From positions 1 to 36,104 of IMG/VR virus record IMGVR_UViG_3300045988_159500: a DNA stretch of 36,104 bases, one strand, 5' to 3'. The notes under the pieces are model-generated. The model searched no databases and was not told the DNA's origin. It saw only the letters and a list, made by a program, of their open reading frames with translations. Numbering within the stretch: position 1 is the stretch's first letter; each line of letters starts with the position of its first letter. The DNA is from a virus. Both the position numbers and the translations under genes were made by a program. Shown here in pieces: positions 7,871-29,860 of this stretch.

Positions 7871-8025
7871 GGATACAAGAGATTTTATAGTAAACAAATT
7901 AACTGAACTATTAATAAAAAATGACTTTTATGAAAAGAAGAAACAGGTCAATGTATATATCAAAAAAAGTAGTGCATACAAAGACTTAATTAAATTAGTA
8001 AAAAATCTAAGATAAAGGAGGAACT

Positions 8026-10794: not shown

Positions 10795-11212
10795 AGAAAT
10801 AGTTATTAAGCAAGTAAATCTACAACAAGACAAAATAGATAGACTTATTAATACAATTGAAATGCGTGATAGCACTATTAAATATCAACAAGACCAATAT
10901 TTAAAACTTTTAAGAAAATTAGATAATAAAGAACCTTTTGGGCTTAATTGTTTATTATTTACATATGATGAAATTATTAAAATACTAAAAAGTAATTATC
11001 ATCCTTTAAAAGATTATATTGAAAGATGGTTTGGTACTTATCAGGACTTTGAAGAAAATGAAGGATTATTTTTTGCAGAAGATGGTATTGAAGTAGAAAA
11101 AGATGATTATTGGTTAGTTAATATCAAAACAGATTATGCTTGTAACTTTAAAGATGTTGAAATGTTAAATAGAAAAGTTTATGAGTTAGAGAAAGTAGAG
11201 AGTGATGAGTAA
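10778..11212 (+). CDS. Hypothetical protein
   Basis: 144 aa. Its 3' end (EKVESDE stop) lies in a 29-bp sequence repeated at 12384-12412. Confidence 0.5.
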   Translation: MIVMNKEIVIKQVNLQQDKIDRLINTIEMRDSTIKYQQDQYLKLLRKLDNKEPFGLNCLLFTYDEIIKILKSNYHPLKDYIERWFGTYQDFEENEGLFFAEDGIEVEKDDYWLVNIKTDYACNFKDVEMLNRKVYELEKVESDE

Positions 11213-11524
11213 ATGCTAACATTACCAATTAAAAAGAAATGGTTTGATATGATTTTATCAGGCGAAAAGAAAGAAGAATATAGAGAGATTAAACCTTATT
11301 ATAATTCTCGTTTAGGTGTTAAATTAATATTACAAGAATTGATTAATAGTTCTAACGCCAAATTTATATCAAATATTATGTTTAGAAATGGATATGGTAA
11401 AGATAGACCTACTATTTTATGTGAATGTGAAATTAGTAAAGGATATGGCAAACCTGAATGGGGAGCAGAACCTAACAAGATGTATTATGTATTAAAAATA
11501 TTAAGTGTGGAGGAGATTAATTAA
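11213..11524 (+). CDS. ASCH/PUA-like domain protein
   Basis: N-terminus LPIKKKWFDMILSGEKKEEYRE resembles the ASCH-domain N-terminal strand (L.IKP.YA..ILSGEK..E.R). Confidence 0.45.
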   Translation: MLTLPIKKKWFDMILSGEKKEEYREIKPYYNSRLGVKLILQELINSSNAKFISNIMFRNGYGKDRPTILCECEISKGYGKPEWGAEPNKMYYVLKILSVEEIN

Positions 11525-12976: not shown

Positions 12977-13600
12977 ATGATAAAAAAAGAAATTTATCCA
13001 AAAACAAAAAGAGTTAGTTGTAAAGGTGATAGAGTTTATCTTACTGAAAAGATAGATGGTAGTAATTTAGTATTTTTTAAGAAAGATGACAAATTATACT
13101 TTGCACAAAGGAACAATATTATTTGCATTGATGAAATTGAAGAACAAAAAGGAATGCTATATAAAGGATTGTATCAATGGCTATTAGACAATAAAGATAT
13201 ATTAGAAACTGAGTTACATAATAATAGTGCAATTTGTGGTGAATGGATAGGAATGGGTTGTCTAAAATATAATGTTGATGAGTTTGATAAAAGATGGTAT
13301 ATGTTTGCAAAAGCAAATATAGATGATAATTATAATTTATATAATTTGATTTATGATCACGAATTATTTATATATCCATTTGTAAGTCAAGAAATACCTA
13401 ATTTTATTGGAATAGTGCCAGAAGTTGCTGAATTAGTTAATTTGCCGAACAAAGAGCAACTAGATGGTATTTATGAAAAGTATACAAACAAAGTAAATAG
13501 AAATGTTGAAGGATTTGTAATTAATTATAAAAATATAATAAGTAAATATGTAAGAATGAAAAATGGTCAATTAAGAGAACATTTTGATAGAGAAAAATAA
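12977..13600 (+). CDS. Minimal ATP-dependent RNA ligase-like nucleotidyltransferase (RNA_ligase/Rnl family)
   Basis: 207 aa. Motif I K-x-D-G-x-N is present as TEKIDGSN. Motif III-like ICGEWIG, motif IV EGFVIN and motif V KYVRMK are all in the canonical order of covalent nucleotidyltransferases. Confidence 0.6.
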   Translation: MIKKEIYPKTKRVSCKGDRVYLTEKIDGSNLVFFKKDDKLYFAQRNNIICIDEIEEQKGMLYKGLYQWLLDNKDILETELHNNSAICGEWIGMGCLKYNVDEFDKRWYMFAKANIDDNYNLYNLIYDHELFIYPFVSQEIPNFIGIVPEVAELVNLPNKEQLDGIYEKYTNKVNRNVEGFVINYKNIISKYVRMKNGQLREHFDREK

Positions 13601-13614
13601 TAGGAGATAAATAA

Positions 13615-14022
13615 ATGAAAGGAATAGAAAGAATAAAAATATTATCATCTGATATAAAAGATGAACAATTAAAATCAATTATTGATTATTTATTATCAAG
13701 AACTGATATGAACGATAAGTACTTAAATGAAGAAAAGAGTTTATCTCAAATGATAAAATTCATAATGAGAGAAGCAAATGAAAAACTAAAAAAAGTATCT
13801 ATAAGTGGTGGTAGTGTAGCATATGCAACTGATGAGATGGTATTTAGTTGGGCAATACATTATTGGGATGAATCTAATTCTAATTTGAACTTAGATAATA
13901 AAAAAGTAGAGAAAGAAGAAAAAGAAACTAATAGTCCGGTTATAAGTGGATCAAATAAACAAAAAACGGACAAAAAAGAAAAGTGGGTATCAGAAGGGCA
14001 ATTAACTTTGTTTGATATGTAA
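13615..14022 (+). CDS. Hypothetical protein with C-terminal QLTLF (beta-clamp-binding-like) motif
   Basis: 135 aa. The C-terminus ...EGQLTLFDM matches the QL[SDT]LF sliding-clamp-binding consensus. Confidence 0.45.
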   Translation: MKGIERIKILSSDIKDEQLKSIIDYLLSRTDMNDKYLNEEKSLSQMIKFIMREANEKLKKVSISGGSVAYATDEMVFSWAIHYWDESNSNLNLDNKKVEKEEKETNSPVISGSNKQKTDKKEKWVSEGQLTLFDM

Positions 14023-15448
14023 TATGTATATTAAAGTAAAAGATAGAAAATTATTTAAAGAATTAGATGAAAATCTTACAATACCTGAAAAATGGCGAGA
14101 ATTTGTAAAAGAAAAAAGTAAAAATCACAATTTAATTTTAAAATCAAAGAACGAGTATTATTGTACATGTTGTAAAACTACATTTAAAGCCGATTATAGC
14201 ATTAATTCGTATTGTAAGTGTAATTATTGTAAAAGAGAATTTTTAGTTAAATCGGCAAGAATTAAGACTTATGCATTTAAAGATTACTTATGTATATTTG
14301 ATAGATATAAAAACTATTATATTGAAAGAGTATTTCAATTAAAAACCGAGTATAACAGTGGTAATTTGAATAGTGAAATATGCGAATTTGGAAGAACAAT
14401 TTATGATGATGCATTTATGCAGGTAGAAAGAATTGTAAATGAAAATTGTGTAAGTACTCCATCTGGGACATGGATAAGAAAGAATAATACAACTTTTGAT
14501 TATAAATGGAGGTATCCATCTTATTACAATCCACTACATTATATAGATGAGTTTATATATTATCCATATAACATAAAGAGTATAATTGGAACAATAGAAA
14601 AATACAAATATAGTCAAATATGGACATTATTAGAACATGTTGACTATTGTGATTTGATTTATTTGTTAAAATGTTATAACCCAAGTGTAGAATTACTAAC
14701 AAAGATGAAAATGTATAATCTAGCATTAAACCCTAAAACTTTTCAAAAAAAGAGGACATTTCGGGACAGGTTTTATGGATTATCAAAAGATTATTTCCCG
14801 TTTATTGTTGAAAACAATTTAACATTAGATGAATTAGAGATATTATCAGTAATTAAAGATAGAAATATCGAAGATATAAGTAAAATAGTAAAATTATATA
14901 ATTATAAAGATTTATCTAAATACATTGATTTACAAAAAGCAATTAAAATAAAAAACTTAAATGCAAATAATACAAGCGAATATTATGATTATTTGAAAAT
15001 GGCTAAAACTTTAGGTTTAGATTTGAAAGATAAGCAAATTGCATATCCAAAAAATATAAAAGAGGCACATGATAAAATATTAGAACAATATAACATAAGT
15101 AAAAATAAAATAATATCTAAGAAAATATTTAAAATCGCTAAAAACATAAAAACAAGTGAATATCAAGATAATAAATATGTAATATTTCCGGCAAAATCGT
15201 ACGAAGATTTAGTTGAAGAATCGAAACAACAAAATAATTGTGTAAGAACTTATGCCGAAAGAATAGTTGAAGGCGAGTGTTATATATACTTTATGAGAAA
15301 ACTATCAGATCTAAATAAATCATTAGTTACAGTAGAAGTTAGAGATAATACAGTAGTTCAAAAAAGAACAAAGAACAATGAGATAACGACTAAAGAACAA
15401 GATAAATTCTTGAAAAAGTGGGAGTTATTAAAACTTAAAAATGGTTAG
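14012..15448 (+). CDS. Large Cys-rich hypothetical protein (possible PcfJ-like)
   Basis: 478 aa. N-terminal zinc-finger-like cluster YYCTCCK...CKCNYCK. The rest is alpha-rich. The ATG at 14024 is an alternative start to the TTG at 14012. Confidence 0.5.
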   Translation: MICNMYIKVKDRKLFKELDENLTIPEKWREFVKEKSKNHNLILKSKNEYYCTCCKTTFKADYSINSYCKCNYCKREFLVKSARIKTYAFKDYLCIFDRYKNYYIERVFQLKTEYNSGNLNSEICEFGRTIYDDAFMQVERIVNENCVSTPSGTWIRKNNTTFDYKWRYPSYYNPLHYIDEFIYYPYNIKSIIGTIEKYKYSQIWTLLEHVDYCDLIYLLKCYNPSVELLTKMKMYNLALNPKTFQKKRTFRDRFYGLSKDYFPFIVENNLTLDELEILSVIKDRNIEDISKIVKLYNYKDLSKYIDLQKAIKIKNLNANNTSEYYDYLKMAKTLGLDLKDKQIAYPKNIKEAHDKILEQYNISKNKIISKKIFKIAKNIKTSEYQDNKYVIFPAKSYEDLVEESKQQNNCVRTYAERIVEGECYIYFMRKLSDLNKSLVTVEVRDNTVVQKRTKNNEITTKEQDKFLKKWELLKLKNG

Positions 15449-16560: not shown

Positions 16561-16639
16561 TTAATATATAAAAAGTTTTAGTTTTGTGTCATTTTAAATG
16601 GTGAAAAATACAGTGCCTTACAAGGAGTAGTGATATTGA

Positions 16640-16714
16640 TGAAAGTAATTATTTTTATATTAGTAGTAGCATGGGCAATAGCTTCTTTTATTATTGCTAA
16701 CGAGAAAAGATAAA
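16640..16714 (+). CDS. 24-codon hydrophobic peptide (MKVIIFILVVAWAIASFIIANEKR), type-I-toxin-like or small membrane peptide
   Basis: AGGAG lies 11 nt upstream of the ATG, or 8 nt upstream of a TTG at 16637. The peptide has a single TM helix and a charged C-terminal tail. Confidence 0.3.
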
Positions 16715-16727
16715 TTTGATAAATAAA

Positions 16728-16801
16728 AGTGGGATAGTGTAATGGTAACATATTGGTTTCAGATGCCAAAGTAAAAGGTTCAATTCCTTTTCCCACAACC
16801 A
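16728..16801 (+). tRNA. tRNA-like gene, anticodon CAG (Leu codon CUG) with a short variable loop; atypical
   Basis: Manual fold: 6-bp acceptor stem plus an A1-A72 mismatch. D-arm GTGT/ACAT with loop AATGGTA (G18 G19). Anticodon stem TTGGT/GCCAA with loop TTCAGAT. 4-nt variable loop. T-arm AAAGG/CCTTT with loop TTCAATT. Discriminator A, then an encoded CCA. Confidence 0.45.
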
Positions 16802-16823: not shown

Positions 16824-16988
16824 ATGGTAGAAGTAGAAGTATTAATTCCAAACTTTAAAGATAAAGAAAACAAACAATTAGGATTATTACAACCAGGTTA
16901 TAAATACTCTATATCTAAAGAAAGATATGTTGAATTATCAAAAAAAGGAATAGTGAAGATGTTCAAAAAAGAAAAAGATGAGAAATAG
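16824..16988 (+). CDS. Small hypothetical protein (54 aa)
   Basis: Strong AAAGGAGTGAAA RBS. Not in the ORF track. Confidence 0.45.
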   Translation: MVEVEVLIPNFKDKENKQLGLLQPGYKYSISKERYVELSKKGIVKMFKKEKDEK

Positions 16989-17002: not shown

Positions 17003-17215
17003 ATGAATTTAAATAAATTTATAAATATATCACTTTTAAAATTATCAAAAAAATATAAAATTACAATAGTTGAGATAACGGTTGCAAAAGAAGAAAAAAT
17101 AAGTAGAACATATTCAGTTAGTTATTATGAGTTGGAAGACGCTGAGCAAGAAACAATAAAAGAAACATTTTATAACAAAAGAAGTTTGGCAAGGTGGTTA
17201 ATGTGTCTAAAGTAA
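17003..17215 (+). CDS. Hypothetical protein
   Basis: 70 aa with a GGAAGGTGA RBS. Confidence 0.4.
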   Translation: MNLNKFINISLLKLSKKYKITIVEITVAKEEKISRTYSVSYYELEDAEQETIKETFYNKRSLARWLMCLK

Positions 17216-17628
17216 GAAAGATAAAATTAACTGATAAACAAAAGAAACAAATAATTGCTGATTATGTAGACTGTAATAATTATTCGGAAGTTGCAAGAAA
17301 ACACAAGATATCTGATACAACAGTTAGAAAATTAGTTAAGTCAGATGAGGACTGTTTGAAAAAACTTGAACAAAAAAAAGAAGAAAATACTCAAGATGTA
17401 CTTGAATATATGGATTCACTCAAAGAAAGAAAAAAGTTAATTGTTGATAAATTATTAAAAGCAATAGAAGAAAAAGCAGAAAATTTGGATAGTTTTACTA
17501 ACATTAAGGATGTTGCTAGTGCATATGGAATAATCATAGATAAAGAATTAAAAATAAAAGAATTAAGAAAACAAAATAGTTCTGATGATACTGGAGTAAC
17601 AATTATAAATGATTTGCCAAAAGAATAA
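17194..17628 (+). CDS. terS: Terminase small subunit
   Basis: 144 aa. N-terminal HTH (NYSEVARKHKISDTTVRKLV). Directly upstream of and overlapping terL. Confidence 0.55.
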   Translation: MVNVSKVRKIKLTDKQKKQIIADYVDCNNYSEVARKHKISDTTVRKLVKSDEDCLKKLEQKKEENTQDVLEYMDSLKERKKLIVDKLLKAIEEKAENLDSFTNIKDVASAYGIIIDKELKIKELRKQNSSDDTGVTIINDLPKE

Positions 17629-18964
17629 CATTGTTAAGATAAGAGATTTGATAATTCCAAAGTATTGGCAAAATTTCAACGATATAAAACATACTCATCA
17701 AATATATACCAGTGGTCGTGCTGGAACGAAGTCATCTCGTGGTGGCATAAGAGAAATATACAGAATAATACAAAATAAACCCGGCTCTGTAGTTGTTATG
17801 CGTAAATTTCATAATAAGTTGAAGAAAACAGTATTTAACGAGTGTAAAAGAGCAATCAAGAGATTAAAATTGCCTTTAAAGAATTTCAAAATAACAGTAA
17901 GCCCTATGCAAATCACATACTTGCCAACTGGTAATACTATTTATTTTACAGGTAATGATAGTATAGATGATACAAAAGGTATGATAGATGAAGACAAACC
18001 TATTGTTTTAGTTGTACTGGATGAATTAACTGAGTTTTTTGATAAAGGTGATGGTGAGGATGAACTGCAAAATATAGAAGCAACATTTATTCGTGGTAAT
18101 GATGAAGAGTTTGTGATGGAATATTATTTTAATCCCCCTAAAAATCCAAAAGCGCCTATTATGGAGTGGCTCAACAAGATGAAGTTAAGGGAAGATTGTA
18201 TACATGTACACACTGATTATAGAGATGTCCCAGAAGAATGGCTAGGAAAAAAATTAATTGAATCTGCAAGAATATTAGAAAAACTAGATCCTAAAATGTA
18301 TAAATGGTTATGGTTAGGTTTATGCATTGGAATAGATGAATTAATTTATTATATGTTTAGTGAGGAAAAACATATTAAAGAGTGTACTGAAGATAATTTC
18401 AAAAATATGAAAAATTTGTTTATTGGTGTTGACTATGGACAAATGAATGCAACAACATATCAGGCATTTGGTATTGATTATAAGGACAAATGCATACGAG
18501 GTGTTGATGAATATTATTATTCAGGTAGAGATACAGGAAAACAAAGGTCACCAAGCGAATATGCACAAGATTTTAAATCGTTTAAAGAGAAAATTGAAAA
18601 AGAGAGTGGTTTAAAAGTCTTATATGTATTCATAGACCCATCTGCAAAAGGACTACAAGAGGAAATAAGAAGAATATGTCCTGATGTGATTATTAAGGAT
18701 GCAAAAAACGATGTTGCTCTTGGAATATCAAGGGTACAAAAAATGCTCTCTTATATGAGAGTTTTTATTTCGCCTAAACAAGAACATTTAACACAAGAAA
18801 TGTTTATGTATAGTTATGATAAAGATTTGCTAGATAAAGGAAAAGAAGTACCTGTAAAACAAAATGACCATTGTGAAGATGCATTTAGATATTTAATAAT
18901 GGGAATTTGGAAATTTATTAAAATTATACTTCCAATGATTGAAGGTGATAAAGATGATGAATAA
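17609..18964 (+). CDS. terL: Terminase large subunit
   Basis: 451 aa. Walker A-like GRAGTKSS and Walker B LVVLDELTEF. C-terminal nuclease-region acidic residues (GVDYGQ ... DHCEDAFRY). Confidence 0.85.
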   Translation: MICQKNNIVKIRDLIIPKYWQNFNDIKHTHQIYTSGRAGTKSSRGGIREIYRIIQNKPGSVVVMRKFHNKLKKTVFNECKRAIKRLKLPLKNFKITVSPMQITYLPTGNTIYFTGNDSIDDTKGMIDEDKPIVLVVLDELTEFFDKGDGEDELQNIEATFIRGNDEEFVMEYYFNPPKNPKAPIMEWLNKMKLREDCIHVHTDYRDVPEEWLGKKLIESARILEKLDPKMYKWLWLGLCIGIDELIYYMFSEEKHIKECTEDNFKNMKNLFIGVDYGQMNATTYQAFGIDYKDKCIRGVDEYYYSGRDTGKQRSPSEYAQDFKSFKEKIEKESGLKVLYVFIDPSAKGLQEEIRRICPDVIIKDAKNDVALGISRVQKMLSYMRVFISPKQEHLTQEMFMYSYDKDLLDKGKEVPVKQNDHCEDAFRYLIMGIWKFIKIILPMIEGDKDDE

Positions 18965-20363
18965 AATAATAGATAAAATAAAAGGATGGTGGAATAAAAT
19001 GTTTGATTATAACAAAATTGCTAAAGATTTTGATTTAGATATAGATACATCAAGAGATATATTAGATGCATTTCAAAAGTTTTCTAATATATATAACGGG
19101 CATGAACCTTGGATAGATGATAATACTAAATCATTACATGTTGCCAAAACAGCTTGCGAAAAGGTTGCAAAAGCAGTTACTATCGAATATAAAAGTTTAT
19201 GTAGCGAACCATACATAAATAAAATATATCAAAAATTTCTGAGAAATAAGAGAAGAAATACTGAGTATATGGTAGGAAAGTCATGTATATTTTTTAAACC
19301 TTACTATTCTAACGGAAATATAAAAATAAGTGTTATTCAAGCAGATAAGTTTATTCCGATCAAATTTGATGATGATGGAAACTTATTAGGATTAATAACA
19401 ATTGATCAACTAACGAGAGGTAATGACATTTACACAAGATTAGAGTATCAAGAGATAAAAGATAATAAAGTAATCATAAAAAACATTGGTTATGTTGGTA
19501 GAAAAGATGGCGTTGTTTTACAAAAAAGAATTGAATTGAGCGCCGTTGATAAGTGGAAAGATATTGAACCGGTTGTAAATATAGAGGGCGTAGATAGAAT
19601 TATTGGAGGATTTGCTAGTATGAAGAATACTAACACAATAGATAATTCTTTTCCTTGCGGTGTTCCGCTTTGGTATGGTGCTATTGAAACACTTGAAGAA
19701 ATTGATAAACAATTTTCTAGAACATTGTGGGAATATGAAGGTACTGAATTAGCAATTGATGTAGATGTGTCATTATTAGCTAGTGTAGACAATGGTAATG
19801 CCAAAATGCCTGAACGTAAGAAAAGATTGTTTAGAAAATTAAACTTTGATGAAACAAAAGATAAAACGTACAATATATTTAGCCCAGAAATAAGAGAAAG
19901 TTCACTATTTAATGGATTAAATGAATATTTGAGGCAAGCAGAAAGCCAAATGAATATTGCCTTTGGTACATTATCAAAATTAAATGACATTGCTAAGACT
20001 GCTACTGAAATAAAGTCTTCTAAACAAGAATACTATGTTACAGTATCAGATATACAAGATTCAATGCAACAGGCATTTGATGATTTAATTTATGGTATTT
20101 ATGTTTTATGTAAATTATATGGTATTCCTGTAAAAAATGATTATTTTGTTGAACATGACTGGGATGATAGTATTTTAGTAGATAAGGAAAGTGCTAGAAA
20201 TCAGGCATTAATCGAGAGAAATAATGATATTACAAGTGATGTTCAATACGTGATGGATACAAAGAATATGAAAGAAAAAGAAGCTATTGAGTATGTAAAA
20301 AGGCAACAAAAATATAGAGAACTTACTAAAGTAGAAGAAAAGAAGGATCCTGAAGAAGAATAA
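18954..20363 (+). CDS. Portal protein
   Basis: About 470 aa immediately after terL. The ATGATG start at 18954 has a GAAGGTGA RBS. Size and position are typical of SPP1-type portals. Confidence 0.65.
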   Translation: MMNKIIDKIKGWWNKMFDYNKIAKDFDLDIDTSRDILDAFQKFSNIYNGHEPWIDDNTKSLHVAKTACEKVAKAVTIEYKSLCSEPYINKIYQKFLRNKRRNTEYMVGKSCIFFKPYYSNGNIKISVIQADKFIPIKFDDDGNLLGLITIDQLTRGNDIYTRLEYQEIKDNKVIIKNIGYVGRKDGVVLQKRIELSAVDKWKDIEPVVNIEGVDRIIGGFASMKNTNTIDNSFPCGVPLWYGAIETLEEIDKQFSRTLWEYEGTELAIDVDVSLLASVDNGNAKMPERKKRLFRKLNFDETKDKTYNIFSPEIRESSLFNGLNEYLRQAESQMNIAFGTLSKLNDIAKTATEIKSSKQEYYVTVSDIQDSMQQAFDDLIYGIYVLCKLYGIPVKNDYFVEHDWDDSILVDKESARNQALIERNNDITSDVQYVMDTKNMKEKEAIEYVKRQQKYRELTKVEEKKDPEEE

Positions 20364-21952
20364 TGAAGAAATATGATTTTGATAAATTATTAAAACCATT
20401 AATTCAAATATACGATGAAATAGAACTTGATATCATAAAAAACATTTTAAATAAACTTGGTAAATATAGTAAAGTACAAGGTTCTTTAGAGTGGTATTTA
20501 GAAAAACTTACTGAATTAAAAGCACTTGAGAAAGAAAATTTAAAAGTAATATTGAAAGATAAAGATGCTATTCAGAAAGAACTTGAAAAGATTATAGAAA
20601 ATGTTGAATTTAAAATTGATAATCTTGATAAGTTAAAATCTTATTATGATAAAGGTTTAATTGAAGTAAACCCAATGGATTTGTATAATAGTTCTTCAAT
20701 CAAATCATTAATGTCAGAAGCATTAAATGATTGTACAACTATTATGGATTTAATTAATACAAAAGCAATAGAGGGTTCTAATATGGCATATAGAAACATC
20801 ATTAATAAAGCATATGTCGAAACTGCAAGTGGTATATATACATATAGTGAAAGTATAAGAAATGCCTTAAAAGAGTTTGCTGTACAAGGGATAAAGACAG
20901 TTAATTATGAAAATGGTTTGACCTTATCAATAGAATCAGCAATAAGAAGAGATGTTGTTACAAGAGTTAATAAATTAGTTGGAGATAAAGAAATTCAAGT
21001 GGCAAAAGAACTTAAAACAAATTTAATGTATGTTGACCAACACTTGGGTGCGAGAGTAAGAACAAAATACATGAAAAATGACTATGAAGCGCATGCAGAG
21101 TGGCAAGGAAAAAAATATATGATAGAAGGTTCTAGCAAAGAATACCCGAATTTATATGAAAAAACGGGCTATGGCGAGATGTTAGGACTTAAAGGTATAA
21201 ATTGTTATCACCATATGCAACCAACCTGGGAGTGGGAAAAAATCCCCAATAGAATAGATGAAATAGAAAATAAAGAAAAATATGAGTTGTTGCAAAAGCA
21301 AAGAAGTTATGAAAGAAAAATGAGAACATTAAAAAGAGAAAGATTAATTGCAAAAGAAACTGATGACAAAGAAAATGTAACAAAGATAAATAAAAAAATA
21401 AAATCTACTAGTGAGGATTTTAATAAATGGTTAGAAGATAATAATCTTACAAGAGATTATAATCGGGAGTATATTGAGAAAAATTATAATTGGATTAATA
21501 ATATAACAAAAGATGAAAAGTACGCATTAAATACATATATCAGTTCTGATTCATACATGATAAATGATGCCTTAAGAAACGATTATCCACTAGATAATAG
21601 ATTAAGCAGTATTGTTAAAAATATAGATAGTGTATTAGATAAAATTCCAAATACTAAAGGTATATTTAATCGTTCTTTGTTTTTTGATAATGAAGATAAT
21701 TATAATGAATTTATTAAATCCTTATCTAGCCCTAATGGAAAGGTTAAATTCAAATCTTTTATTTCTATGTCTAAGGATATTTATGATGAAAAGGATAACG
21801 TTAGACTTATAATGAGGTGTAAAACTGCTAAGGATATAAGTATGATAAATAAAAATGAGCAAGAATTATTACTTAAAAGAAATACAGGTTTTAAAATATT
21901 GAAAAAATATTATGTGAATGGTAAACTATTCGTAGATATGGAGGAATTATAA
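20363..21952 (+). CDS. Head morphogenesis protein (Mu F / SPP1 gp7-like) fused to a C-terminal C3-like mono-ADP-ribosyltransferase domain
   Basis: Position after the portal. The C-terminus aligns motif by motif with the C3 exoenzyme: EKYALNTYISSDSYMINDALR matches EKEAIVSYTKSASEINGKLR. NRS gives the catalytic Arg. FISMSKD is the STS motif. EQELLL is the Q/ExE ARTT motif. Confidence 0.7.
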   Translation: MKKYDFDKLLKPLIQIYDEIELDIIKNILNKLGKYSKVQGSLEWYLEKLTELKALEKENLKVILKDKDAIQKELEKIIENVEFKIDNLDKLKSYYDKGLIEVNPMDLYNSSSIKSLMSEALNDCTTIMDLINTKAIEGSNMAYRNIINKAYVETASGIYTYSESIRNALKEFAVQGIKTVNYENGLTLSIESAIRRDVVTRVNKLVGDKEIQVAKELKTNLMYVDQHLGARVRTKYMKNDYEAHAEWQGKKYMIEGSSKEYPNLYEKTGYGEMLGLKGINCYHHMQPTWEWEKIPNRIDEIENKEKYELLQKQRSYERKMRTLKRERLIAKETDDKENVTKINKKIKSTSEDFNKWLEDNNLTRDYNREYIEKNYNWINNITKDEKYALNTYISSDSYMINDALRNDYPLDNRLSSIVKNIDSVLDKIPNTKGIFNRSLFFDNEDNYNEFIKSLSSPNGKVKFKSFISMSKDIYDEKDNVRLIMRCKTAKDISMINKNEQELLLKRNTGFKILKKYYVNGKLFVDMEEL

Positions 21953-24552: not shown

Positions 24553-24930
24553 ATGTTTCCACATACAATTACTATATTTAATCTTGTAAACGATATATAT
24601 AATAGAAAAGTTGTACATAATGTATTTTCACATACTGATAAAATAATTTCACAAGAGGGAAAAGGTGAAAAATATACTTCTGCACATAGAGTTATTTTTT
24701 CGGAAAATGCATTAAATGATTACTTAACTATTGACGAGTATAATAAATTAAGCGATAAAACTAATAATTTTACTCTAAAAAACAATGATTTAATTGTCAT
24801 AGGTGAATTTAAAGAAATAAAAGAATTAGTAGATGTAACCAAAACAAATGTTGATTATTTTTTAATTAAAACTATTTCAGACAACCGATATGGGTCTTTA
24901 GATTTACAAAACATAGAGGTAACAGATTGA
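24553..24930 (+). CDS. Head-tail joining protein (by position)
   Basis: 125 aa in a tightly packed operon. Confidence 0.4.
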   Translation: MFPHTITIFNLVNDIYNRKVVHNVFSHTDKIISQEGKGEKYTSAHRVIFSENALNDYLTIDEYNKLSDKTNNFTLKNNDLIVIGEFKEIKELVDVTKTNVDYFLIKTISDNRYGSLDLQNIEVTD

Positions 24931-27467: not shown

Positions 27468-27740
27468 AAATAAGGAGGTGTTATATGTCTGGCTATTAAA
27501 AGAGAAGTAGTTGTAGATACAAAATTAAAATACGAAAAAATACAAAAAGACTTTAAAAATCTTGAAAAAGATACTGAAAGTTTAATTAATAAATATAACA
27601 AGTCGGTTGATTCGATAAAAAAACAAGAAAATGCACTTGATAAAGTAAAAGCAAAATATGAAGAATTAAAAGTCTATGCTGATGCGGGCGTCTTAAAAAC
27701 AAGTGGAAAACAAAAAGAATATATAGATACTATTCATCAA

Positions 27741-29432
27741 ATGGATTCTATGAAAGGGAAATTAAAAGATACTAAGGCAGAAGCAAATCATTTAAAAGAT
27801 GAGATACAAAAATCTTTGAAAGCAAAATTAATAAAAAAATATGGTGAAGGATTTGCCGATCTATGTGAGAAAACAGATTCATTTAAATCGAAAATGACTA
27901 AACTCATATTAACTGTAGCAGTGTTAAATCTTATCAGAAATAAATTATCTGATATGCGAAACGGGTTTGTTAATTTGCTTAAATCTAATACTGAATTTAG
28001 TAACAGTTTAGGTAGAATAAAAGCAAATTTAATGACTGTCTTTGCACCAATATACAACGCTTGCTTGCCTGCGATTAATACATTAATGACAGCACTTTCT
28101 AAGTTGACTGGTACAATTGCAATATTTGTATCGGGTTTATTTGGAAAAAGTATTGAAGACACACAAAAAGATGCGAAAAAGTTATCTAAACAATTAGATA
28201 ATGTAGGCAAAAGCGGAAAGAAAGCAAGTGGTTCTCTTGCAAGTTTTGATAAACTAGAAGTTTTATCGGATAACTCTTCAAGTGAAAGCACATCGGGTAG
28301 CAATGCTGTTGTGCCTAATTATAATAGCGAAATTCAATTTAGTGAAAAACTATTAACCGTATTAAATAAAATCAAAGATTTTATTGTTGAAAACAAGGAA
28401 CCGCTGGTAGCATTTTTAATAACTGTCATAGGTTTGATAGGTTTGATAAAATTAATAAGAATTATAAATGAGATAAATACAGTTACTGGTGTTTTAAAAC
28501 CACTTATGACATTCTTATCAGCACATGCTACTACAATAGGTGGAATACTTGCGATTGTGGGTGGTTTAATAATATTTATTGATGGTATTATTAGATATTT
28601 ACAAGATCCTACATGGGAGAACTTTGGAAAGATACTTTTAGGTGTAGGGGTTATTGCAGCAGGGGTATTTTTAATATTTGGTGGTTTCCCAGCACTGATT
28701 ACAGCTATTATAGGAATAATAATTGCTTTGGGATTAGCGATATACAAAAATTGGGAAAATATAACAGAAACTCTTGGAAAAGTTGGTGATTGGATATATG
28801 AACATATAATTAAACCAATCGCTGACTTTTTTGTTGGGCTATGGAATGGAATAATCGGAGGGGTCAAATCAACAGTGAACTGGATAAAAAGTGCTTTTTC
28901 CTCTATAGTAAGTTTCTTTTCGAATATTGTTTCTAAAATAGTAACGTTGTTTAGAAATATAGGTACAAAAGTTGGAAATGCCATTTCTGGAGCATTTAGA
29001 GTTGTAATAAATGGAATATTAGGTGCTATAGAAAGTATACTTAATTTTCCAATTAAATCAGTAAATAGATTAATTGGAGTTATTAATAAAGTTCCAGGAA
29101 TTAACATTGGTACATTACCAACATTTAATTTACCACGATTAGCAAAAGGTACTGTTATACCACCAAGACAAGAATTTGCTGCAATACTTGGAGACCAAAA
29201 ACACGGAACAAATATTGAAGCACCACTTGAAACTATCAAACAAGCAAATAGAGAGGTTATGCAAGAATTTTTAGGAACATTATCTAATTTAAATAATGGT
29301 GAAAGAGAGATTGTATTAAGAAACTTAACATTTGTATTACAATTTGGAACTGGTAATAATTTCCAAAAATTGGTAATAGACAGCATTAGATTATCGGAGA
29401 AAGAATTAGGAAGGCAATTGTTGCTTGCTTAG
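27741..29432 (+). CDS. Tail tape measure protein (true N-terminus probably near 27485)
   Basis: 563 aa from the first in-frame ATG. Coiled-coil N-part and hydrophobic central segments typical of TMPs. The frame is open from 27474 with a TMP-like coiled-coil translation but no ATG/GTG/TTG before 27741. Confidence 0.75.
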   Translation: MDSMKGKLKDTKAEANHLKDEIQKSLKAKLIKKYGEGFADLCEKTDSFKSKMTKLILTVAVLNLIRNKLSDMRNGFVNLLKSNTEFSNSLGRIKANLMTVFAPIYNACLPAINTLMTALSKLTGTIAIFVSGLFGKSIEDTQKDAKKLSKQLDNVGKSGKKASGSLASFDKLEVLSDNSSSESTSGSNAVVPNYNSEIQFSEKLLTVLNKIKDFIVENKEPLVAFLITVIGLIGLIKLIRIINEINTVTGVLKPLMTFLSAHATTIGGILAIVGGLIIFIDGIIRYLQDPTWENFGKILLGVGVIAAGVFLIFGGFPALITAIIGIIIALGLAIYKNWENITETLGKVGDWIYEHIIKPIADFFVGLWNGIIGGVKSTVNWIKSAFSSIVSFFSNIVSKIVTLFRNIGTKVGNAISGAFRVVINGILGAIESILNFPIKSVNRLIGVINKVPGINIGTLPTFNLPRLAKGTVIPPRQEFAAILGDQKHGTNIEAPLETIKQANREVMQEFLGTLSNLNNGEREIVLRNLTFVLQFGTGNNFQKLVIDSIRLSEKELGRQLLLA

Positions 29433-29443
29433 GGAGGAAAAAT

Positions 29444-29860
29444 ATGGACAAAATAAAAATAATAAATCCAAAAGATAGTACTGATTATTTTGAAATTCCT
29501 TGGGAGTGGTTGCCACAAGGGACACAAGGACCAACTTTAAATGATTTAGAAGCAACAGCGGAAAGAGGTAAATCGAGTGGTTATTTAAGCCGTGTTCGAT
29601 GTGCAGAAATACCTGCTGCAACACTAGATATTGATGAAAGATTAACTCAACAACAAATATATCCTATGTTAAAATTATTAAAATTAGTTAAAGTTAAAAT
29701 TTACTACTTTGAAAAATATTTAAATAAATTTGTTACAAGAGAATTTTATGCTAAAAAACCTAATCCTAAATATTGGGAAATTCCTGAAAATAACAATACA
29801 GATAATATAGTATATGACAAATTCACAATTGAATTTTCTGGTTACGGAGATGTTAATTAA
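29444..29860 (+). CDS. Distal tail protein-like (by position)
   Basis: 138 aa with a GGGAGGAAAAA RBS, between the TMP and the large tail-tip protein. Confidence 0.4.
   Translation: MDKIKIINPKDSTDYFEIPWEWLPQGTQGPTLNDLEATAERGKSSGYLSRVRCAEIPAATLDIDERLTQQQIYPMLKLLKLVKVKIYYFEKYLNKFVTREFYAKKPNPKYWEIPENNNTDNIVYDKFTIEFSGYGDVN

Follow-up and report, generated by a model that had tools for sequence, protein, structure and literature searches.

The window, by which we mean the whole stretch of 36,104 nucleotides that was analysed, carries a tRNA gene whose product is probably a phage-encoded tRNA of the initiator type, with an anticodon, CAG, that pairs with the CUG start codon of the phage's own tape-measure gene. 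At the level of sequence, comparison with related phages establishes that the tape-measure gene starts at a non-AUG codon (CUG in the window), that the tRNA and a non-AUG start strictly co-occur, and that anticodon and start codon vary together. With somewhat less assurance, we favour the view that this is a temperate gut phage lineage with natural orthogonal initiation, in which a private initiator tRNA has been re-targeted to CUG, UUG, GAA or GAG and the start codon of the tape-measure gene, sometimes also those of further late genes, has co-evolved with it.

The tRNA and its anticodon are located as follows.

16728 to 16801, + strand: class-I tRNA, 74 nt (ARAGORN, Rfam, family covariance model R1, covariation in 20 homologues)
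16760 to 16762, + strand: anticodon CAG (tRNA positions 34-36), complementary to CUG (sequence, ARAGORN, Rfam)

A preliminary description of this DNA, made from its letters alone, had folded a tRNA-like gene here by hand and suggested ARAGORN scoring. The gene is real: ARAGORN called a single tRNA in the window, at exactly 16728-16801(+), typed Leu with anticodon CAG, and Rfam RF00005 matched the same positions with 59.1 bits against a gathering score of 29 (E=1.8e-10). The family covariance model R1 gave it 93.1 bits. Its acceptor stem, AGUGGGA/UCCCACA, has an A1·A72 mismatch over six good pairs; the D-loop, AAUGGUA, includes GG; the anticodon loop, UUCAGAU, supplies U33, the CAG and A37; the variable loop, AGUA, is 4 nt long; the T-loop is UUCAAUU, and the 3' end consists of A73 and an encoded CCA. 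The cloverleaf is also the minimum-free-energy fold, with positions 1 and 72 unpaired. The sequence and the Rfam alignment thus bear out every detail of the hand folding (GG in the D-loop, TTCAATT T-loop, U33, purine 37, A73, CCA, class-I build with the Leu anticodon CAG, 4-nt variable loop, A1·A72 mismatch), and its author was right to suspect that this was no ordinary tRNA-Leu.

To collect homologues, viral and metagenome contigs were searched by TerL, by capsid and by pattern, and contigs encoding close capsid homologues were looked up as well; loci are given L numbers below. The family tRNAs recovered in this way share one site, which lies a few hundred bases ahead of the gene for the small terminase. 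ARAGORN overlooks some of them, for example that of L285 (2652-2725), so that tRNA finders may under-report the family; the covariance model R1 was therefore built and run on all loci. Among 20 distinct homologues, the stem pairs other than 1:72 are 95-100% paired, and compensatory changes occur at 16/21 pairs, in all four stems, with a covariation score that none of 500 shuffles reached. The cloverleaf is therefore not a product of chance. The tertiary pair 19:56 co-varies as well, from G-C to A-U in L172 (3964-4037); on reading the sequences of L275 (3847-3920) and L285 (2652-2725) we found the same change, with G18-A19 in the D-loop and U56 in the T-loop.

The features held constant in this family are those of an unusual tRNA. 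Positions 1 and 72 are unpaired in 20/20 distinct sequences (A·A, C·A, G·A or U·C), A73, U11:A24 and an invariant G30-C40 pair are found in all 20, CCA is encoded in 19/20, and the variable loop is 4-5 nt long throughout. The anticodon-stem pairs 29:41, 30:40 and 31:39 are G-C, G-C and U·G in the window, and only 30:40 is an invariant G-C across the family. Position 37 is normally a purine, and a free base there is unusual for an elongator; in the family it is U in most members, A in the group of the window, C in L194 and L294, and G in L173. Such freedom would be more easily tolerated by a tRNA used only in the P site. The family was seen solely in viral and metagenome contigs, and a pattern scan of one genome per species gave two spurious matches, neither of them a tRNA.

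The nearest relatives of the family point in the direction of initiation. Among 622 distinct sampled phage tRNAs with a good acceptor stem, 48 lack the 1:72 pair; 20 of these are tRNA-Met(CAU) and 14 are members of the present family. A blastn search with a 701-nt region against 50,697 GenBank phage records gave no match. With the tRNA alone, an unbiased blastn matched, among GenBank phages, only tRNA-Met genes of crAss-like phages, and these in part; their anticodon loop, UUCAUAG, compares with UUCAGAG in the family member of L130. Among the loci collected here, too, the nearest tRNAs outside the family are initiator-type tRNA-Met. Bacterial tRNAfMet resembles the window tRNA in its unpaired 1:72 with A72, in A73, in G30-C40 and in its class-I size, and it resembles the family in serving a start codon that is positioned by a Shine-Dalgarno sequence, a role that we infer for the family. 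The two also differ. The anticodon of tRNAfMet is CAU and that of the family CAG, CAA, UUC or CUC; tRNAfMet has three G-C pairs (29:41, 30:40 and 31:39) where only 30:40 is invariant in the family, and A11:U24 where the family has U11:A24; and position 37 is not conserved in the family. Given the single invariant G-C pair and the U-A at 11:24, we therefore describe the tRNA as one that works like an initiator, and not as a tRNAfMet.

Two tRNAs from other phages were noted in the course of this comparison. L043 has, within a 9-tRNA cluster, a class-I tRNA (2371-2444) with C1·A72, A73, the same D-arm and the anticodon CCU ('Arg'), and L084 has a class-I tRNA typed Leu-CAA with C1·U72 and A73. 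From their sequences, both are candidates for additional non-AUG initiators, in phages that are unrelated.

The second half of the proposed pair is the start of the tape-measure gene.

27472 to 27480, + strand: Shine-Dalgarno sequence AAGGAGGUG of the tape-measure gene
27489 to 27491, + strand: CUG, proposed start codon of the tape-measure gene
27489 to 29432, + strand: tape-measure protein gene, 647 codons from the CUG (phrog_1535 tail length tape measure protein, E=8.8e-66)

The tape-measure frame is open from 27474, but the first ATG, GTG or TTG in it is codon 90 from there, at 27741, and for 84 codons after the CUG at 27489 there is none in frame. Ahead of this CUG, AAGGAGGTG occupies 27472-27480, and the CTG at 27489 is the only one in the window with an AGGAGG-type Shine-Dalgarno sequence upstream; no CUG-start gene other than the tape-measure gene was found in the window. 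Automatic gene callers choose the internal ATG 27741 as the start, which yields a protein of 563 aa and leaves a gap of ~270 nt; among the phages compared here, they cut the tape-measure gene by 24 to 149 codons. Annotation of these phages is affected on both counts, since the tape-measure genes are shortened by gene callers and the family tRNAs are labelled Leu or Glu by ARAGORN, or in some cases overlooked.

This arrangement is conserved. GGAGGTG or GAGGTG stands upstream of the non-AUG tape-measure start in all relatives, and the pattern "GGAGGTG, 5-8 nt, CTG GCN" is kept in relatives whose tape-measure proteins are just 38-89% identical. In eight of them (L174, L175, L177, L195, L275, L285, L290 and L294) the codon immediately before the homologous CTG is an in-frame stop, so that this CTG has to be the first codon of the gene. 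Two further late genes with a CTG start occur in both L174 and L175. One is an ORF of 139 codons without an ATG, GTG or TTG anywhere, which aligns residue for residue with window positions 29444-29860, where the start is ATG; the other aligns with a window gene that starts with TTG, at 24927.

Read-through or fusion from the upstream Gp15-like gene was considered and rejected, as two in-frame stops separate the two frames in the window; the TGA..TAA, or the TAA directly before the tape-measure CUG, in relatives also speaks against it.

The co-occurrence of the tRNA with the unusual start was then a matter of counting. In the first set, each of the nine loci with a class-I tRNA(CAG) had at least one genuine CUG start, against 0/66 control loci without such a tRNA, in which the few matches were of the form "CTG ATG". 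Five loci added later to this set were all positive. Relatives whose tape-measure gene starts with AUG have either no tRNA at the site or a different one: the tape-measure gene of Acutalibacter phage Fontainebleau has an ATG start and no tRNA accompanies it, and the related phage L204, with an AUG start, carries at the same genomic site an A1·A72 tRNA-Met(CAU).

Moreover, the anticodon matches the tape-measure start codon in the 17 related contigs that hold both features.

CAG anticodon with CUG start: 14 contigs
CAA anticodon with UUG start: 1 contig (L194)
UUC anticodon with GAA start: 1 contig (L173)
CUC anticodon with GAG start: 1 contig (L297)

The relevant UUG of L194 is the second of two, with the 5-nt spacing seen for CUG elsewhere, and in L173 an in-frame GTG inside the Shine-Dalgarno sequence is a possible alternative start to GAA. 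The last combination had been anticipated. In the tape-measure genes of L176 and L289, GAG is aligned to the CUG position, 7 nt after GGAGGTG, and an anticodon CUC or UUC was therefore expected before any CUC tRNA had been seen. L288 and L297 have a family tRNA with exactly the anticodon CUC, and with A1·A72, A73 and CCA, at the canonical site; L297 itself has the GAG start, and the capsid proteins of L288 and L176 share 97% identity. Neither GAA nor GAG agrees with AUG at any of its three positions, and they are therefore not near-cognate to the initiator anticodon CAU. Because the carriers are related to one another, the 14 CAG/CUG cases do not count as independent, and the independent support amounts to the three or so anticodon switches.

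One partial tRNA does not fit this scheme. Positions 1-60 of L176 hold the 3' portion of a tRNA that resembles the family (R1 score 44 bits; anticodon loop AUACCUU, 'ACC'; 3' end ...GCAACCA), which lies upstream of the scaffold gene and not at the usual site; a matching GGU start was not found.

Could the gene nevertheless encode an ordinary elongator tRNA-Leu(CAG) for a rare codon, with the CUG start weakly read by the host tRNAfMet and the two features linked by shared ancestry only? ARAGORN does type it as Leu, A73 fits LeuRS identity, CUG is rare in this AT-rich system, and genuine elongator tRNAs lie near by in some relatives (Ile-UAU in L130, a 9-tRNA cluster in L294). Phage tRNAs that compensate for codon usage are likewise phage-encoded, close to late genes and directed at host-rare codons, but CUG is not enriched here. 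The window has ~9 in-frame CUG in ~9,900 codons, and the frequency per 1000 codons is 0-2.4 in carriers of the tRNA against 0.2-2.9 in non-carriers, roughly 1 in both; L285, a carrier, has no internal CUG at all in 6,540 codons. The supplementation of a rare codon, which had been proposed in the preliminary description, is accordingly unsupported. The late ORFs of the window are intact under table 11, and CAG reads a sense codon and not a stop. The body of the molecule is also wrong for this role. Bacterial tRNA-Leu shares with the family the anticodon CAG or CAA and A73, but it is class II, with a long variable arm, whereas the window tRNA is class I, with a 4-nt variable loop and an unpaired 1:72; and, unlike tRNA-Leu, the same body carries the Glu anticodons UUC and CUC in some homologues. 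A 1:72 mismatch in 20/20 sequences combined with a free position 37 fits no EF-Tu-dependent decoder of the A site, and the anticodon becomes UUC, CUC or CAA exactly where the start becomes GAA, GAG or UUG. We regard this explanation as improbable.

A different mechanism has to be weighed for the subgroup of the window only, on account of a short reading frame that overlaps the CUG.

27485 to 27499, + strand: four-codon mini-ORF ATG TCT GGC TAT TAA (MSGY followed by a stop), overlapping the CUG start out of frame

Translation might start at the AUG at 27485 and then undergo a +1 shift (AUG-U-CUG), promoted by the tRNA(CAG) reading the out-of-frame CUG. The AUG stands 6 nt after GGAGG, a better Shine-Dalgarno spacing than that of the CUG, and lies one nucleotide off the tape-measure frame; the subgroup of the window (L154, L155, L157, L162, L163 and L165) retains 'ATGTCTG'. 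This sequence is absent from most relatives; around their CUG there is no ATG, whatever the frame, and the codon is often immediately preceded by a stop. No known shifty motif was seen, and a role in the A site is at odds with the 1:72 mismatch, so that we consider a shift quite improbable as the explanation of the subgroup's start. The AUG of the mini-ORF may compete with or regulate the CUG start, or may itself point to a +1 shift, and, given this better-spaced out-of-frame AUG, the start mechanism in the window subgroup could be more complicated than elsewhere. An assembly error as the origin of the out-of-frame ATG was rejected, the sequence being identical in independent assemblies.

A comparable configuration was observed in another tape-measure family (N-terminus GSLTYDTKIDK). 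In several contigs independent of each other, L180 (~7985-8010), L186 (~14560) and L188 (~17440), a Shine-Dalgarno sequence and an ATG lie one nucleotide out of the long tape-measure frame, and close relatives have the ATG in frame (compare L190 10126, L181 and L184). The out-of-frame ATG may reflect a +1 shift or some other non-standard start.

The window is a prophage rich in AT (GC content 24-31% over 2-kb windows), and the tRNA stands ~0.4 kb upstream of the terminase genes, at the head of the late operon, a layout found in all relatives. Its genes include the following.

84 to 1196, - strand: integrase
1735 to 2433, - strand: cI-like repressor
12977 to 13600: RNA-ligase-like gene (PF09414; phrog_20735)
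14012 to 15448: PcfJ-like gene
16639 to 16713, + strand: small hydrophobic ORF, 24 aa, ending 14 nt upstream of the tRNA
16824 to 16988, + strand: 54-aa ORF directly downstream of the tRNA
17194 to 18964, + strand: terminase small (HTH) and large subunit genes (PF04466, PF17288)
17609 to 18964: terminase large subunit, followed by the head and tail genes

L129, too, has a small hydrophobic ORF of a similar kind ahead of its tRNA. The 54-aa ORF is syntenic with the tRNA, with homologues in 13/17 tRNA-bearing loci and in 0/29 loci without it. It had no Pfam or PHROG match, and its AF2 single-sequence model, of mediocre quality (pLDDT 74.7), gave a non-significant likeness (E about 0.9) to the bL9 N-terminal domain and YqbF. 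Elongator tRNAs were also observed in this neighbourhood: a tRNA-Ile(UAU) lies ~0.7-0.9 kb upstream of the special tRNA in L130 (5329-5403), L143 (7951-8027) and L145 (1434-1508), and the 9-tRNA cluster of L294 (2412-3321), made up of ordinary-looking elongators, adjoins it.

The preliminary description had suggested that the tRNA might be a decoy or substrate for a host or phage anticodon nuclease, and had mentioned the RNA-ligase-like enzyme of the prophage. A decoy or replacement tRNA against a host anticodon nuclease or other tRNA-targeting defence, perhaps with the help of the ligase, would have a precedent in phage tRNAs with altered anticodon loops, for which evasion of such defences is proposed (PMC10264068). 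The ligase-like gene is indeed present (PF09414), but it is not consistently linked with the tRNA: homologues occur in just 4/17 other tRNA-bearing loci (and 0/29 controls), which makes the association at most a loose one, and no nuclease or Pnkp partner was seen. The suggestion finds no support, it would leave both the matching of anticodon and start codon and the 1:72 mismatch unexplained, and we consider it very unlikely.

Equally slim are the chances of a non-decoding tRNA-like element (an RNase P/RNase Z processing signal between the early and late transcripts) or of a degenerating tRNA gene, for which the location between operons and the variability of the anticodon loop at positions 37 and 38 would speak, but against which stand the compensatory changes that maintain the full cloverleaf, tertiary pair 19:56 included, the invariant A73, the CCA encoded in 19/20 and an anticodon constrained to match a start codon. 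The preliminary description had also raised a non-decoding role; its non-standard part holds in spirit, but the anticodon/start-codon evidence points to decoding, namely of a start codon. No ribozyme or other RNA family was found adjacent to the tRNA at E≤1.

We therefore return to the initiator-type tRNA and to how it may work. It would be transcribed at the head of the late operon, cut from the transcript and aminoacylated, with Leu (by LeuRS) or Met (by MetRS) as the candidate amino acids. LeuRS is blind to the anticodon and recognises A73, which is what makes Leu a candidate, and in principle this enzyme could charge the whole family; Met is a candidate because of residual recognition of C34 and A35 by MetRS. 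The YUC members could be charged by GluRS. If MetRS needs CAU, the members with a Glu anticodon cannot be its substrates; for the UUC and CUC members, at any rate, Met is unlikely to be the amino acid. Next, the unpaired 1:72 end would favour formylation and the binding of IF2 and disfavour EF-Tu, and the tRNA would enter the P site of the 30S subunit at the CUG 27489 positioned by the Shine-Dalgarno sequence. In some relatives, further head and tail genes would likewise begin with CUG. To make its tape-measure protein, the phage would in this way depend on its own tRNA, an arrangement that may serve the gating or dosing of tail proteins or, alternatively, a selfish lock-in.

Published work on tRNAfMet shows that such a mechanism is feasible (PMC11744186). 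Anticodon mutants of tRNAfMet initiate at the complementary codons, and the efficiency with which native tRNAfMet reads CUG is just 0.1-1%. It is the 1:72 mismatch that directs formylation and keeps EF-Tu from binding, and targeting to the P site is the work of the G-C pairs in the anticodon stem (PMC11744186). The principle of these engineered mutants (PMC11744186, bioRxiv 10.1101/2021.05.25.445580), an initiator body with a changed anticodon that reads a complementary non-AUG start, would be that of the phage tRNA; they are laboratory constructs, whereas the phage case would be natural, tied to one structural gene, and marked by co-evolution of anticodon and start codon. Phage suppressor tRNAs (PMC10879173) offer a second parallel. 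There, too, a phage tRNA alters the reading of codons in late genes and makes their expression dependent on the tRNA, but suppressor tRNAs act in elongation at stop codons, and the window tRNA would act at initiation on sense codons.

If this explanation is correct, the tape-measure protein, and some other late proteins, would begin with a residue other than methionine and be made solely when the phage tRNA is present. This would be a new layer of translation control in phages, parallel to the recoding of stop codons by suppressor tRNAs, and would offer synthetic biology natural, already optimised parts for orthogonal initiation. It would also be, to our knowledge, the first initiator tRNA in nature to carry an anticodon other than CAU: all natural ones described that we know of have CAU, and we know of initiation at GAA or GAG from engineered tRNAs alone. 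A full-text literature search, with most subscription journals outside its coverage, returned engineered non-AUG initiator tRNAs and no natural or phage-encoded one.

Some further observations concern the prophage and its host. In L151 a host tRNA-Ala(UGC) (11179-11255) adjoins the prophage, near the sporulation genes SpoIIP and GPR, and is probably the attachment site. In the assembly of L152 the integrase end is continuous with the tail end, which is consistent with a circular form. The only conclusion that we draw about the host is that it is a spore-forming, low-GC Firmicute of the human gut; the flanks carry SpoIIP, GPR and a third host gene. Lastly, the minor capsid protein Phage_min_cap2 of the window (20363-21952) contains an ADP-ribosyltransferase toxin domain (PF03496), and the minor capsid protein of relatives has a CdiA_C toxin domain at the same place.
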